From Nanobdellota archaeon (GTDB lineage Archaea; Nanobdellota; Nanobdellia; Pacearchaeales; GW2011-AR1), in assembly GCA_038045265.1 (NCBI GenBank), contig JBBSYL010000010.1, positions 582-64,581 of the forward strand: a stretch of 64,000 bases of DNA. The letters are read 5' to 3'. Positions within the stretch are counted from its first letter, which is position 1, and each line of letters begins with the position of its first letter. Made by a program: the position numbers and the translations under genes. Under the pieces are notes generated by a model that did no database searches, was not told the DNA's origin, and saw only the letters and a program-made list of their open reading frames with translations. Positions 2,246-23,385 of the stretch are shown piece after piece.

Positions 2246-3184
2246 TCATTTAGGCGGAACAAGATTATCCCAGCCATCAATGAAATCTTGAATAGGTGGA
2301 ACATCTACATGCAATTTTCTTTTTTCTACATATAATTTTGTAAGAAGATAGAAAATAATTCCAAGAGATTTTGCAGATTTATTATTTCCAGGAATTATTT
2401 GTGATATTCCTGCAGTGAAATTGTTTGTGTCACATACAGATAAAACATCTACTCCAATTCTATTTGCGTCCTGTAATGCGTTCTTATCAAGCCAAGAATC
2501 GCAGATAAATATTAAATTTGCTTCTGTAAAGTTTTCAAGATTTGTATTTGTAAGTATTCCTGAAGGATATTTCTTTGTGAAAACTCTTACTCCTGTAACT
2601 TCAGCGAATTTGTTTACTGCCTTCCAGCCAGCTTCTCTTTTACATATAAGAATAATTTCTTCTGGAGAAAACTTTGCAAGGTATTCTGCTCCTTCCTTTA
2701 ATTTATCATCTAATAAAGCAGTATTGAAAACTGCAAGACCATCAGCTCTTCTTCTATAAACGTATTTTCTCATGTCTGGAGTAATAACTCTTGTTCCCAA
2801 ATGGATTGATGATTTTAGATAATCTTCTATTGGAACTAATGTGTCTTTCTTCTCATCCTCTTCTGACCTGACCTTTTTCTTTAAATCTATATCTTTTGTT
2901 CCTTCTACTTTTCCCTCTAGTTTCTTTGCCTTTTCAAGAAGTTTTGCAAGTTTTGCTTTTCTATCGTCTCCAGCAGACTTATCTTTATCTGTTTTCTTCA
3001 CCTTCTTTTCTTTGCCCTCAATGAATTCTTCTACTTCCTTCTCTAATTTTTTCGCACCCTTCTCTACCTTTTCAACCATTTCTTCAGCATCTTTCTCTAT
3101 TTCTTTAACAGCATGTTCTACTACATGCTCTGCTTTCTCAAGGAAAGATTCTTTCTTCTTTGTTGTTTTTTTGTTCTCTGCCAT
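2246..3184 (-). CDS. rps2: 30S ribosomal protein S2 (uS2) with ~100-aa K/E-rich N-terminal extension
   Basis: C-terminal 200 aa align to uS2 (IHLGT..., DMRKYVY, VDVLSVCDTN). The N-terminus is a low-complexity K/E repeat. Confidence 0.9.
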   Translation of the reverse strand: MAENKKTTKKKESFLEKAEHVVEHAVKEIEKDAEEMVEKVEKGAKKLEKEVEEFIEGKEKKVKKTDKDKSAGDDRKAKLAKLLEKAKKLEGKVEGTKDIDLKKKVRSEEDEKKDTLVPIEDYLKSSIHLGTRVITPDMRKYVYRRRADGLAVFNTALLDDKLKEGAEYLAKFSPEEIILICKREAGWKAVNKFAEVTGVRVFTKKYPSGILTNTNLENFTEANLIFICDSWLDKNALQDANRIGVDVLSVCDTNNFTAGISQIIPGNNKSAKSLGIIFYLLTKLYVEKRKLHVDVPPIQDFIDGWDNLVPPK

Positions 3185-3318
3185 TTTTTCTTGTCCTATG
3201 TAATTTTTATATAAACAGCGCAGGGGTTTTGTCCAAGTTGTTTCAGTTGGTACCTGCTAATATCTAAAGTGATGAAGAAAGGGGTTTTTAAAGATTTGGA
3301 TTACTGCTAAATTAAATT

Positions 3319-3546
3319 TTATCCATATCTGTCTTCGTAGAAACTTGTTGCACCATAACATGATAATCTTCCTAAAGCATCGTCTCTATCCACGCCATTC
3401 TCTCCTTCAAGGGATTTTCCTCCAAATCTTATATCGCTTGCTAATTTGTCTAATTTCTTTTTATCACCCTCTGCTAATAATCTCCTTACTTCTTCTGTAT
3501 CTACCATTATTTTCCTGCAGAACTTTAGTTTAAAAATCTTCCTCAC
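3319..3546 (-). CDS. small hypothetical protein
   Basis: 75-aa ORF between the discoidin-like genes and rps2, same strand. No family recognised. Confidence 0.3.
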   Translation of the reverse strand: MRKIFKLKFCRKIMVDTEEVRRLLAEGDKKKLDKLASDIRFGGKSLEGENGVDRDDALGRLSCYGATSFYEDRYG

Positions 3547-4505
3547 CCATAACTAAACCCTGCAATCTTAAATTCAACTTCCGCGAGGTTGCCGTAATCA
3601 CGCACTCCAGATGTTTGTACAAATCTGACATATCTGGCTACTGCGATTTCTGGAAGCTTTTGTGTGATTATTCTTGGATATGTTACTTGAAAGTCTTTCA
3701 TTAGTGTGTCCCAGTCTTTTCTATTGTTGGATATTTCGATGTCCATGATTAATGGGACATCGAACTTACTGAAATACATGTCAAGAGATTTTATGCATTT
3801 CTGATTTCCTAGATCGAATTCAATCCATCTCGGATATGATTCATCTGCGTCTCCAAACCAATTACTTGAAAGGTTTTTATCAATTGCGTTTCTTGCAGGG
3901 AAATCTAAATCCTGGGAACTTGCTGTTGCAGAAATTGGAGATTCGAGAGAATAATCTCCGCATGAAACTGCAAGATTAGACATACCCGCTATTCCTCCTG
4001 ACTTTTCATTTTCTGAGACTCCTGCAAAGAAAGGAGTTCCAGGAGGAGTCGTTGTGCCTCCACCGCCTCCCGAAGGAGAAGTACATACTCCTTCAGAACA
4101 TGAGTATTCACAGGAGAATTCATCTTTTATGCTTACATTATTATTACAGTAATATTCATATAAGATTTTGTCTGTAAAGCAGGAGTCTGTGAAGTTAAGT
4201 TTTGTTCCTGTAGCAAATGTCTGGACTACTTTTCCTTTTGCGAAGTAATTTTTGCCTGAGTCTGAATCTACACATGAAGCAGTATAAGTTTTCTTGGTTT
4301 CATTTTTACTAGTTTCGTTTTTACTTGTGCTATTTACTGGGGGCTCTATTGGAGGTTCATCTCCACCATCCCCATATCCGTAACCGAGATTTTGAAAATT
4401 GAGGGAGACATGTCCGGTTGGTTTTGAAAGTGTTACTTGCAGTATTATAGCTACTATAAGAATAGCAACTAGCAGAAGAATTGTATAAATTTCTCTTTTA
4501 TTCAT
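3543..4505 (-). CDS. secreted/anchored discoidin (F5/8 type C)-like domain protein, paralog B
   Basis: N-terminal TM/signal. Cys-rich module CVDSDSGKNYF...CEYSCSEGVC. C-terminal domain with SNWFGDADESYPRWIEFDLG resembling discoidin/F5-8C. Paralog of the upstream ORF. Confidence 0.55.
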   Translation of the reverse strand: MNKREIYTILLLVAILIVAIILQVTLSKPTGHVSLNFQNLGYGYGDGGDEPPIEPPVNSTSKNETSKNETKKTYTASCVDSDSGKNYFAKGKVVQTFATGTKLNFTDSCFTDKILYEYYCNNNVSIKDEFSCEYSCSEGVCTSPSGGGGGTTTPPGTPFFAGVSENEKSGGIAGMSNLAVSCGDYSLESPISATASSQDLDFPARNAIDKNLSSNWFGDADESYPRWIEFDLGNQKCIKSLDMYFSKFDVPLIMDIEISNNRKDWDTLMKDFQVTYPRIITQKLPEIAVARYVRFVQTSGVRDYGNLAEVEFKIAGFSYG

Positions 4506-20757: not shown

Positions 20758-21371
20758 TGTACTATAATACTCCTCATTGGAAGAGATTTTATCTCCTTGT
20801 CTATCTTTAAAACTATTAAATTTTCTTTTTTAGATTCTATTGTGCCATGCTTGCCCGCGTACTTACCTGAAAATACGAAAGCCTTTGCTCCTTTTTCGCA
20901 TGCAACGTGGGATTTTATATTTCCGTTCTTATCAAGATATACTGAATCTCCTACCCCTATTTTTTTGTCTGAAATTACGTTCGAACCGTCGTGTAAGTTG
21001 AGTTGAATTCTTCCTTTAGAAATAAGTTTTTTATTAATAACCTTGCAAATTCTTTCTTCTGCATTTGTTTCTTTTAATGAGAATTTTTTTGTTGGCTCAA
21101 CTGAGAGAACATATTTTTTATCAGCTTCAAAAATATTAAAAAGTTTTATACTTTCTTTGAAGTCTTTAACTTCCCCATGGTTTATCTTGAGTAGTTTTCT
21201 ATGAATCATGCTTTTTACTTCTCTTGCTGTGCCTGCAAGTTTGAGCATATCCCTTACTGCGAGAACAACTGGGACTGCATTATTGACATCTGATGATGCT
21301 CTTGCTATATATTTCGTTCCCTTTCTCTTGATTGGTATAAATGTTGAAACTTCTTGTCTTGTCTGATGCAT
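20754..21371 (-). CDS. rps4e: 30S ribosomal protein S4e
   Basis: Position between L24 and L5. S4e-like sequence. Confidence 0.9.
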   Translation of the reverse strand: MHQTRQEVSTFIPIKRKGTKYIARASSDVNNAVPVVLAVRDMLKLAGTAREVKSMIHRKLLKINHGEVKDFKESIKLFNIFEADKKYVLSVEPTKKFSLKETNAEERICKVINKKLISKGRIQLNLHDGSNVISDKKIGVGDSVYLDKNGNIKSHVACEKGAKAFVFSGKYAGKHGTIESKKENLIVLKIDKEIKSLPMRSIIVQ

Positions 21372-21372
21372 T

Positions 21373-21786
21373 TTATTTCTCCTTCTTGTTTGACTTTGCT
21401 TCCACAGATTTTCTGTTCAATGCTACAAGGCGTTGTCTGTCTGACTCGTTCAAAGAAATTATTTGAAGAGCTCTTGGATTGAAAGGAACACTAACTTTAG
21501 TACCGTCTCTCTTTGAAACTTGCAGTCCTTCAATGTTAACAAATGAGCGCTTGAGATTAACAGAAATTACTTTGGCTTGCTTCTTTTTGAAGCGACCGCG
21601 CATAACAAGCACTTCATCCCCTTCTCTGAGGGGAAGATTCCTCTTGCCATACTTTTGTCTTAATAATTTTGACAAATGAGAGCTTAAAAACTTATGCCTT
21701 GTATGCAATGGTGCATTATGTCTAAACTTATGCTGTTTTCTCGGCTGAATGCTTGACTTCCAAGATGTTGAGAATTTGGATTTCAT
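21373..21786 (-). CDS. rpl24: 50S ribosomal protein L24 (uL24)
   Basis: KOW motif region GDEVLVMRGRFKKKQAKV. Confidence 0.85.
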   Translation of the reverse strand: MKSKFSTSWKSSIQPRKQHKFRHNAPLHTRHKFLSSHLSKLLRQKYGKRNLPLREGDEVLVMRGRFKKKQAKVISVNLKRSFVNIEGLQVSKRDGTKVSVPFNPRALQIISLNESDRQRLVALNRKSVEAKSNKKEK

Positions 21787-22142
21787 TTTCTTACCCTCAT
21801 TGCATCTGCCAATCTTGTCATTGCAGTTTCATAGGTTCTTCCAACATGTGATTGTAATGGATCATTTATTTTTTTTGCAATTGTGCCTGCCCAAATCCAA
21901 TTATAAAGAGGAGAAATATATCTGAGTAATAATCCTCTAATTTCTTCAGCACACTCCACTGCCCTAATTGGATCTTCTCTATTCACTGCTTTTACTCCTT
22001 CTTCTGAACAATATCTCATTAATACTAAACCATCCAATAACAGACAAAATCTTTCGCTAGTTACCCCACTATTCATTACTCTAACTACTCTCTGTCTTTG
22101 TTCTTCTAGCTCCGCAGGTAATTGAATTCCACTCATCATAGT
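21783..22142 (-). CDS. hypothetical helical protein inserted between rpl14 and rpl24
   Basis: Non-low-complexity ORF exactly filling the 350-bp gap between two genes that are normally adjacent. Likely start MMSGIQ immediately after the rpl14 stop. Appears more GC-rich than neighbours by eye. Confidence 0.4.
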   Translation of the reverse strand, partial: TMMSGIQLPAELEEQRQRVVRVMNSGVTSERFCLLLDGLVLMRYCSEEGVKAVNREDPIRAVECAEEIRGLLLRYISPLYNWIWAGTIAKKINDPLQSHVGRTYETAMTRLADAMRVRK

Positions 22143-22537
22143 ACGTATTGTGCGATTTTCGCAACCTCTTTCCATCTTTCCATAACTTCCCTTGCTACTG
22201 GGCCTTTAATGAATGTTCCTTTTGGATTTCCTTTTTCATCTTTTAATAATGCACAAGCATTGTCCTCAAAGCAAACTCTTTCTCCAGTATTTCTTTTGTA
22301 AGGTTTTCTTTGTCTTATTACAATAGCTTCAAACACCTTCCCTTTCATATCTGGTTTTCCTGCTCTTACTGAAACTTTTACAAGGTCTCCAACTTTTGCA
22401 AATTGCTGTCTTCCTTTTGTGACCTTTCCATGCTTTACGCCTGCAATTCTAACAATTCTAGCTCCGGAATTGTCTGAAGCGAGCAAAGAACTTCCCACAT
22501 TTAAACCTCTAGTTACTCTAGCTGATACTGCTTTCAT
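22136..22537 (-). CDS. rpl14: 50S ribosomal protein L14 (uL14)
   Basis: Highly conserved uL14 sequence. Confidence 0.95.
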   Translation of the reverse strand: MKAVSARVTRGLNVGSSLLASDNSGARIVRIAGVKHGKVTKGRQQFAKVGDLVKVSVRAGKPDMKGKVFEAIVIRQRKPYKRNTGERVCFEDNACALLKDEKGNPKGTFIKGPVAREVMERWKEVAKIAQYVL

Positions 22538-22902
22538 TTCTTTTCCTCCAAATTCGTAGAACGAATCTTTTCAATTACAATTGCGTGAATTATCTTACTT
22601 AAAGGTCTGCATTCCTGAACTCTAACATAGTCTCCTACTTCGATATTTATTCCTGAAGGAAGGCGAGCATGAATTTTTGTTTTCTTTTTGTAAAATCTTT
22701 CATATTTTCTAATTTTAACTGTTCTTTCAAATTCTATAACTACTCTTCCTGTAAATTTTTTGACAACTATGCCCTCAAATATTCTTCCTCTTGATGGAAC
22801 TCTTTCTAAGGCTCCAACTATCGATTTAGCTTCTTCTTTCTTTACTTTTATTTTATTTTTTGTTTCCATGTTAATCTGAAATTGAGTTGTCGGCGAATCC
22901 AA
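22534..22902 (-). CDS. rps17: 30S ribosomal protein S17 (uS17)
   Basis: uS17 OB-fold sequence and position. Confidence 0.85.
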   Translation of the reverse strand: MDSPTTQFQINMETKNKIKVKKEEAKSIVGALERVPSRGRIFEGIVVKKFTGRVVIEFERTVKIRKYERFYKKKTKIHARLPSGINIEVGDYVRVQECRPLSKIIHAIVIEKIRSTNLEEKK

Positions 22903-23179
22903 GTTTTACAAGCCAGAGCCTTACTCTTCTCTTGTGGTCCCCCTGAAGTTCGATTATCCCGTCTTTGACTGTGCCTCCGCAAGCAAGCCCTTCCTTAAGT
23001 TTTTTTGCTGTTTCCTTAAGGTCTACTGTTTTATCGAAACCTGAAACAAGGGTGATTATTTTGCCGTAACGCCTTGACACCTTTGAAACAGTGATTTTTT
23101 GGTCGCTTTTAGCAATCTCTTCGAACACATCGCCTTGCGTCGGGAGGTTGGGTATCTTAAATTCTGAATCGTCTGTCAT
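22871..23179 (-). CDS. sui1: translation initiation factor SUI1 (aIF1/eIF1 family)
   Basis: GKIITLVSGF...LKEGLACGGTV...IELQGDHKRRV matches the SUI1 fold consensus. Between L29 and S17. Confidence 0.8.
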   Translation of the reverse strand: MTDDSEFKIPNLPTQGDVFEEIAKSDQKITVSKVSRRYGKIITLVSGFDKTVDLKETAKKLKEGLACGGTVKDGIIELQGDHKRRVRLWLVKLGFADNSISD

Positions 23180-23385
23180 TATCTTTTAGCCGCCACCTCC
23201 GATCGTTTTGGTTTGTTCATGAACGTTAGTATGCGCGCAACTGCCCTTTTAATCTCTTTGGTTTTTGCTTTGGCTTTATTAGCAGTTACTCCAGATTTTG
23301 TAAGCTCAAACTTCAAGTCTTTCATTTTCTGTTGCAAATCCGCATCAGGCATTTTTTCTATATCTTTAAATTTCAAGAGAGTCAT
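23179..23385 (-). CDS. rpl29: 50S ribosomal protein L29 (uL29)
   Basis: 68-aa helical protein in the conserved position after S3. Confidence 0.8.
   Translation of the reverse strand: MTLLKFKDIEKMPDADLQQKMKDLKFELTKSGVTANKAKAKTKEIKRAVARILTFMNKPKRSEVAAKR

Follow-up and report, generated by a model that had tools for sequence, protein, structure and literature searches.

A small ORF between the uL14 and uL24 genes in the S10-spc superoperon of a Pacearchaeota-type DPANN archaeon: a probable accessory passenger of a ribosomal operon

The S10-spc ribosomal superoperon of a Nanobdellota archaeon carries a small open reading frame (ORF), here called ORFX, between the genes of the ribosomal proteins (r-proteins) uL14 and uL24. 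It lies in a stretch of 64,000 nucleotides (nt; positions 582 to 64,581 of contig JBBSYL010000010.1, assembly GCA_038045265.1), the window to which all coordinates without a locus prefix refer. ORFX is probably a non-core, accessory passenger protein of the superoperon in this Pacearchaeota-type DPANN archaeon. Its non-core status is suggested by related operons that are 85-96% identical to one another in the DNA of their r-protein genes and have either an empty junction or an unrelated ORF at this place. The product is already known as an annotated hypothetical protein; its context, the fast-evolving class of coupled ORFs and the uL14-uL24 hot spot are new. The features concerned are the following.

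22136..22537, minus strand: uL14 gene (rpl14), upstream neighbour, 133 amino acids (aa); Pfam Ribosomal_L14, E 7.1e-33
21783..22139, minus strand: ORFX, 118 aa; predicted soluble four-helix protein, isoelectric point (pI) 8.5
21373..21786, minus strand: uL24 gene (rpl24), downstream neighbour, 137 aa; Pfam Ribosomal_L26, E 3.3e-22, and KOW, E 4e-6
22136..22139, minus strand: ATGA overlap of the ORFX start (22139-22137) and the uL14 stop TGA (22138-22136), read directly from the sequence
21783..21786, minus strand: ATGA overlap of the uL24 start (21786-21784) and the ORFX stop TGA (21785-21783), read directly from the sequence
21794..21798, minus strand: GAGGG Shine-Dalgarno (SD)-like motif for uL24, in the final ORFX codons, 8 nt upstream of the uL24 ATG
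21783-22175, minus strand: maximal ORF, 130 aa, beginning with 12 codons that fall within uL14
22140..22175, minus strand: in-frame upstream extension of the maximal ORF, 12 codons, read in another frame from the conserved 3' end of uL14

ORFX in the ribosomal superoperon

The superoperon occupies the minus strand of the window from uL3 (about 27735) to uL15/SecY (about 14776), with its genes tightly spaced at -8 to +1 nt throughout, and ORFX is the single extra element in it. The uL14-uL24 spacing is 349 nt and is spanned from end to end by one same-strand ORF, as an earlier note on this DNA, made from the sequence alone, had claimed. The note was also right that the stop of the ORF overlaps the uL24 start by 4 nt (ATGA) and that the ORF is non-repetitive, since repeat scans found no tandem repeats in ORFX and no inverted or direct repeats flanking it. 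The two ends of ORFX share just the ATGA tetranucleotide. The sequences AAAATGAAATCCAAA at the uL24 start and AAAAGGAAATCCAAA within uL14 form a near-repeat of 15 nt, but they do not flank the insert, and their likeness is probably due to chance.

Two details of the earlier description had to be revised. Its coordinates hold for the maximal ORF, and the gene itself is likely the shorter 118-codon frame; the protein of that frame is the NCBI gene call AABW80_01275, a hypothetical protein of the metagenome-assembled genome Nanoarchaeota archaeon. Translation of ORFX probably leaves out the 12-codon extension: in the NCBI call the gene begins at 22139, and relatives show the same alternative-frame extension over the conserved uL14 3' end. 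The start, which had been placed after the uL14 stop, overlaps it. In the sequence around it (GTA CTA TGA TGA GTG) the ATG sits over the uL14 TGA (CT-ATGA-TG), and the resulting tetranucleotide is a predicted termination-reinitiation coupling site. This start geometry (d5 = -4) is also found in many related inserts.

ORFX is very likely a real coding gene. Stop codons are expected at about 7% per random codon at this base composition, and we estimate the probability of a 118-codon open frame at about 2e-4. With a frame-specific codon-usage score trained on 70 other genes of the window, ORFX reached 0.277/0.331 nat per codon (gene mean 0.287 +/- 0.059), the 40th percentile of these genes, and its other five frames all scored lower. 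The identical DNA of the ORFX region was assembled independently in three sequencing runs with zero differences. That a non-coding spacer happens to contain an open frame by chance can effectively be excluded. The idea that the gap contains a cis-regulatory RNA or an r-protein leader was likewise rejected: a search of 21000-23000 against Rfam gave no match at E<=1, and the coding signal accounts for the gap.

The GC content of ORFX, which had been described as raised, is 0.359 against 0.347 +/- 0.028 for the genes of the window and 0.378 and 0.379 for the flanking uL14 and uL24, and its GC at third codon positions is 0.20. A foreign origin was rejected, since both GC and codon usage are host-like. 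A bacterial-type signal scan found no convincing promoter or terminator of its own for ORFX, and the coding strand lacked any terminator-like site; ORFX is therefore probably co-transcribed with the operon. The claim that a real novel gene is expressed together with r-protein genes is supported, with co-transcription as its probable part.

Searches against Pfam, NCBIfam, PHROG and the PDB sequences gave no match to ORFX, and the best PADLOC match (Cas2e, E 0.016, 13 bits) is noise, in agreement with the earlier statement that the product has no recognisable family. Both a word-indexed search of 5.8 billion proteins and an exhaustive phmmer search of 1.84 billion representatives returned ORFX itself and a spurious match only, a fungal NACHT/WD40 repeat protein that was rejected as a homologue. 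The closest uL24 in the 5.8-billion-protein collection has at most 75% identity, so that the orphan status of ORFX is expected for a lineage without a close sampled relative. IMG/VR contigs held no relatives of ORFX, the best E value of a BFVD fold search was 0.84, and no paralogues were found elsewhere in the window or in the fetched loci.

Some further observations concern the same operon. At 22534-23385 of the window, aIF1/SUI1 (22871-23179) lies between uL29 and uS17 without the RNase P component Rpp29 (RNP1); Rpp29 occupies that operon position in the DPANN genome GW2011_AR10 (PMC10833476). The S17 ORF as listed has a TTG start and a 32-nt overlap with SUI1, and an ATG 11 codons downstream is the likelier start. 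Two independent Logan assemblies of this organism (L001, L002) end at one and the same base inside uL14, their contig starts corresponding to about 22241 of the window, which may reflect strain heterogeneity or an upstream repeat.

Junction ORFs in related operons

To place ORFX, about 50 genomic and metagenomic loci centred on uL24 homologues, together with the neighbourhoods of the closest uL24 proteins, were collected and their r-protein genes mapped, which after dereplication left 33 operons of Pacearchaeota/Woesearchaeota type. The canonical gene order has L14 and L24 adjacent, including in a DPANN genome (PMC10833476). The uL14-uL24 junction was empty in 20 of the 33 operons, the two genes overlapping by 4 nt or lying a few nt apart, and in the other 13 it was occupied by 100-760 nt. 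At least one expanded junction was present in 18 of the 33. The other junctions were occupied as follows.

S17-L14: occupied in 8 of 31
S14-S8: occupied in 5 of 26
L22-S3: occupied in 3 of 21
L5-S14: occupied in 3 of 28
L24-S4e: occupied in 2 of 32
S4e-L5: occupied in 2 of 30
S3-L29, L29-SUI1 and SUI1-S17: occupied in 0

Nearly every gap was filled by a single ORF on the same strand, occasionally by two, with a length of 65-142 aa and a spacing of -4 or +1 at both ends. A GGAGG-like motif lies in the last codons of nearly all related inserts, 6-10 nt before the downstream ATG, and this embedded motif accounts for the recurrent '...GG..' and '...AA' C-termini of the inserts. The inserts are mostly helical. 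A Pfam scan found a domain in none of 26 Pacearchaeota-type inserts, including no GIY-YIG, HNH or LAGLIDADG domain. Full-text searches of the literature gave no description of such junction inserts. Judged from these gene arrangements, ORFX is apparently one case of a general and seemingly undescribed habit of this clade of placing coupled ORFs in r-protein junctions.

The turnover of the inserts can be seen in a genus-level group of four loci (L022, L024, L027, L029) with r-protein genes 85-96% identical at the DNA level. Here the uL14-uL24 junction is empty in L024 and L027 and holds unrelated inserts in L022 and L029. The L022 insert at this junction (L022:355-609) is homologous to the insert of L029 at S4e-L5 (L029:4063-4341; E 6e-6), which suggests that junction ORFs relocate. 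The S14-S8 insert common to the group has only 56-66% DNA identity where the flanks have 85-96%. The L029 insert at uL14-uL24 opens with the first 11 nt of the empty-allele uL24 (ATGAAAAACGA), and the true uL24 follows a fresh SD and ATG; this single observation is suggestive only of an insertion just after the start codon.

In two of the closest metagenome loci, whose uL24 is 72-79% identical, a 36-codon ORF with ATGA overlaps at both ends lies at uL14-uL24 (L017:107-217, L020:928-1038). This ORF may be what is left of a larger insert, or no more than a minimal spacer; the 103-nt gap was rejected as a decayed ORFX, nothing being alignable beyond the SD region.

Several other junctions of the survey deserve a record of their own. 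In a distant archaeal lineage (L045, Ga0180438_10000017; GC about 58%, uL14 44% identical) a gene for a 115-aa tRNA-binding-domain protein (PF01588, E 1.4e-23; L045:2644-2991) is coupled to the uL14 stop, so that a translation-related gene of a known family fills the slot that ORFX has in the window. Inserts at S14-S8 in several related operons form a second, better conserved family of about 100 aa (MQTLQTQTG...; phmmer 1e-15 to 1e-27) at L022:2424-2741, L024:4878-5207, L029:5129-5443 and L041:3752-4045. The Pacearchaeota genome RIFOXYC1_FULL_38_15 (L005) has tandem paralogous ORFs with a Cys motif (...[DN]GICTCG[YF]...; E 4e-14) between uL24 and S4e (L005:3461-3658 and 3639-3878). Nanoarchaeota H32-bin054 has an 876-nt expansion between S17 and uL14 (L010:1673-2544), whose two ORFs, of 102 and 188 aa, are weak paralogues of each other (phmmer E 1.8e-5) and by eye contain hydrophobic, membrane-like segments. 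On a Jordarchaeia QC4 contig the uL14-uL24-S4e block stands twice in tandem within 3 kb (L016:1216-2574 and 2584-3996), either a true three-gene duplication or an artefact of assembly or curation.

Remote relatives, rate of evolution and predicted structure

ORFX likely belongs to a family of helical proteins of the uL14-uL24 junction, as far as the similarities and positions of these inserts allow. The L018 insert (129 aa, at uL14-uL24) matched ORFX with a BLASTP E of 7e-4, the two having in common ...ELE..R......G[LV][IT]SERF... A profile of the ORFX, L018 and L041 inserts brought in two further orthologues of L018 type, P0005 and P0006, both at uL14-uL24. With a phmmer E of 1e-7 the L041 insert (130 aa) is clearly homologous to the L018 group, yet its place is S4e-L5, and a segment I[WY][AG]G..AK[KS]IN[DP] is common to ORFX and the L041 protein and missing from the L018 group. 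Against a profile made without it, ORFX scored 9.8 bits, a score reached by 0 of 5000 and by 1 of 3000 composition-preserving shuffles, and hhalign aligned ORFX to the family with E 4e-4 and a probability of 34%. The L053 insert (119 aa, at uL14-uL24, from one of the closest uL24 relatives) scored 11.8 bits with 0 of 3000 shuffles; it is matched in turn by the L056 insert (142 aa, E 1.3e-6). The first uL14-uL24 ORF and the S17-L14 ORF of L054 were marginal to significant.

The family examined thus consisted of L018/P0004, P0005, P0006, L041/P0003, L053 and L056. Its niche is an r-protein operon junction occupied on the same strand with translationally coupled geometry, and its form is an all-helical protein of about 115-140 aa in which helix 1 is followed by a G-x-[IT]-S-E capping box. 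ORFX has both; its capping box is GVTSE at residues 25-29, and the box is degenerate in L053 (GYIKPE). The earlier note had named a lack of conservation in any relative among the grounds for giving up the gene; what was found are weak but significant homologues at the same junction in other lineages. One profile did not take in all uL14-uL24 inserts: those of L004, L005, L022, L025 and L029 stayed below significance and may be unrelated to ORFX or diverged beyond recognition.

The inserts evolve fast. For the orthologues of L018, L051 and L052 the ratio of non-synonymous to synonymous rates (dN/dS) was 0.28-0.84, compared with 0.01-0.06 for their uL14, and the non-synonymous rate was 10-60 times that of uL14. 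The lowest value, 0.28 for L051 and L052, comes from 17 synonymous differences over 73.7 sites and 22 non-synonymous differences over 304.3 sites. The frame is intact in these inserts, and their sole indel is a multiple of three. Between L053 and L056 the syntenic inserts are 24% identical and the flanking r-proteins 73-95% (uL14 95%, uL24 74%), and an ORFX orthologue at the distance of the nearest relative is therefore expected at or beyond the twilight zone.

AlphaFold2 gave a predicted local distance difference test (pLDDT) score of 57.8 for ORFX alone, and of 76.8 with a predicted template modelling (pTM) score of 0.66 for ORFX with four putative homologues. The model is a four-helix bundle with helices at residues 9-24, 29-53, 57-84 and 86-116, and had no fold match. 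The family is soluble as judged by negative grand averages of hydropathy (GRAVY), and has a pI of 5.2-9.1 versus 9.6-11.8 for the r-proteins of the operon. The conserved positions are the helix-capping box and hydrophobic core positions, with no catalytic signature among them, and partner binding would therefore be likelier than catalysis.

ORFX is probably not a structural ribosomal protein. Neither ORFX (in Pfam, NCBIfam and PDB) nor any of the 8 family members matched a known r-protein family; the junction is empty in most of the operons surveyed, including close kin of carriers, and the family is not strongly basic. A profile of the 8 sequences had its best PDB matches in Thermus thermophilus S20 (E 0.015-0.04), and Foldseek with the ORFX model listed a bS20 chain at rank 42 (E 3.2). 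An identity with bS20 was rejected: no S20 of another species was among the PDB matches, no member matched Pfam Ribosomal_S20p, the E. coli S20 had an hhalign probability of 0.6% against the family profile, and the family is not basic. We judged this to be a chance resemblance of helical hairpins.

Explanations for the junction ORF and known systems

The earlier note had left the choice between a ribosome- or translation-associated function and a selfish insertion into a highly expressed operon. The comparative data favour an insertion riding the operon over a ribosome component, because the junction is empty in 20 of 33 operons and holds different small ORFs in 13, the pI is near neutral and evolution is fast. 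As an accessory passenger, ORFX would work as follows. Ribosomes that end uL14 at its TGA would reinitiate at the overlapping ORFX ATG, the geometry of which is observed, so that the coupled start, which serves uL24 where the junction of a relative is empty, would now belong to ORFX. Its 3' end, in which the GAGGG motif and the second ATGA overlap are directly visible, would supply a new SD and keep uL24 coupled. The product would be a soluble protein of roughly 13-14 kDa, modelled as an antiparallel four-helix, TPR/MIT-like bundle, and would be dispensable. It would belong to a rapidly diverging family confined to the junctions of this operon, mainly uL14-uL24, once S4e-L5 and possibly S17-L14, whose members may be gained, lost and relocated over short evolutionary times. 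Persistence is plausibly aided by position, in that the essential uL24 would be uncoupled if a nonsense mutation arose in ORFX or if its deletion were imprecise, and recombination between the flanking ATGA(A) microhomologies could remove the insert precisely.

Several points weigh against this view. The loci were chosen by uL24 similarity and are neither a random nor a phylogenetically controlled sample. ORFX has only a weak similarity to the other inserts (about 10 bits, hhalign probability 34%), and the case for homology draws partly on the common position; the AlphaFold2 model was built on five sequences. All four copies of ORFX are identical and so offer no variants for a dN/dS of its own, and in one ortholog pair of the sister subfamily the value of 0.84 is compatible with near-neutrality. 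The bacterial-type scan leaves room for an internal archaeal promoter, and ORFX contains a TTTATAAT stretch at some 120 nt upstream of uL24. That ORFX most likely acts by binding a partner is drawn only from its absent catalytic features.

It is unlikely that ORFX and its relatives are a lineage-specific ribosome-associated factor that binds the ribosome or a nascent r-protein. One candidate role would be that of an escort dedicated to uL14 or uL24; another would be anti-association or hibernation at the uL14 surface, where aIF6 acts in archaea and eukaryotes and RsfS in bacteria. The gene would stand beside that of its client so that the two are co-expressed in stoichiometric amounts. Dedicated r-protein chaperones of eukaryotes such as Acl4 are helical-repeat proteins. 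The tight translational coupling, the dN/dS of 0.28 as a sign of some purifying selection, and the modelled TPR/MIT-like bundle, a typical protein-binding fold, would all suit such a factor. The same weakly conserved family recurs at exactly uL14-uL24 in several divergent lineages, but one member is at S4e-L5 instead, and the ORF is missing from the 20 operons with an empty junction, some of them very close relatives of carriers. The family is also neither acidic like the usual r-protein escorts nor basic like rRNA binders, diverges extremely fast, and has no fold or sequence match to known ribosome factors.

We consider it improbable that ORFX is a translated spacer without function, that is, inserted DNA kept open only because ribosomes have to pass through it on their way to the coupled uL24 start, with a product selected for no more than being harmless, soluble and foldable. 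Such a spacer would fit the dN/dS of up to 0.84, but the pair L051 and L052 shows purifying selection; it would fit the 24% identity of syntenic copies between flanks at 73-95%, but the capping-box motif and the helix pattern are conserved across lineages. C-terminal residues that the downstream gene sets through its SD and ATGA, presence/absence polymorphism between close relatives, and a 36-aa mini-ORF in L017 and L020 that resembles a minimal spacer are also in its favour. Against it, the frame-specific codon usage of ORFX is as strong as that of bona fide genes, the helical-bundle model is confident, and a useless 350-nt ORF should be costly in a top-expressed operon of a streamlined genome.

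Least of all do we expect a mobile or selfish element or conflict cargo, with cassettes of arms-race proteins (antiviral, anti-defence or host-interaction) moving between junctions and genomes by a homing-like route or by recombination via the conserved r-protein flanks: one family does occur at different junctions (S4e-L5 in L041 and uL14-uL24 in L018; S4e-L5 in L029 and uL14-uL24 in L022), unrelated inserts share one junction in near-identical backgrounds, the L029 insert begins like the empty-allele uL24 with a new SD and ATG, and protein evolution is very fast, but neither ORFX nor the 26 inserts have a nuclease, recombinase or transposase domain, ORFX has host-like GC and codon usage and no terminal inverted or direct repeats, and PADLOC, PHROG and IMG/VR, the window and the loci gave no matches or paralogues. 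The data lend no support to the word 'selfish'.

A bolder extension, which we regard as doubtful, is that the S10-spc junctions of Pacearchaeota-type DPANN archaea hold a hitherto unrecognised, flexible pool of families of hypervariable small proteins, ORFX among them, that are swapped among junctions and genomes and act on the ribosome or on neighbouring r-proteins. Such a pool may exploit start-codon capture and translational coupling, and possible roles of its members are uL14/uL24 escorts or silencing factors, or ribosome-directed weapons or shields in conflicts among symbiont, host and virus. If true, the composition or regulation of the ribosome would be strain-specific in these organisms.

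Under the accessory-passenger interpretation, too, the junction ORFs have a wider bearing. Few gene arrangements in biology are as conserved as the S10-spc cluster, which is also a routine phylogenetic marker block for uncultured lineages. That more than half of the operons sampled, from one large DPANN clade, have small, fast-evolving, coupled genes of variable presence at their junctions would mean that streamlined genomes have an unforeseen place in which genes can arise or accessory cargo can settle. The inserts would offer a natural system for how insertions keep the translational coupling of essential genes, and they would flag abundant, probably highly expressed proteins in poorly understood episymbionts. 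'Hypothetical' calls within marker operons should not be taken for annotation noise. If the partner of ORFX is the ribosome, ORFX would become a lineage-specific translation factor.

Like the native non-ribosomal genes of archaeal S10-spc operons, namely aIF1/SUI1 and Rpp29 between uL29 and uS17 and, closing the cluster, secY, adk and cmk, ORFX is co-oriented, tightly packed and probably co-transcribed. These genes, however, are conserved across archaea and belong to known families, whereas ORFX is found in one sampled lineage, has no family and lies at a junction that is mostly empty. Orphan small proteins are, like ORFX, short, fast-evolving and without homologues by standard searches; unlike a typical orphan, ORFX has a fixed and constrained genomic niche and remote relatives in the same niche.

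Two phage systems are also similar. Free-standing homing endonuclease genes of T4-like phages (seg/mob) are, like ORFX, patchy and intergenic between conserved genes. Unlike them, the 26 inserts have no GIY-YIG, HNH or LAGLIDADG domain, and are 65-142 aa long and mostly helical. Phage 'morons' are small, dispensable, fast-evolving ORFs between conserved essential genes, with presence varying among close relatives, and ORFX, if dispensable as proposed, is like them in these respects. Morons usually come with a promoter and a terminator of their own, and their composition is unlike that of their surroundings. For ORFX neither a promoter nor a terminator of its own was found, its composition is that of the host, and it resides in a cellular ribosomal operon.

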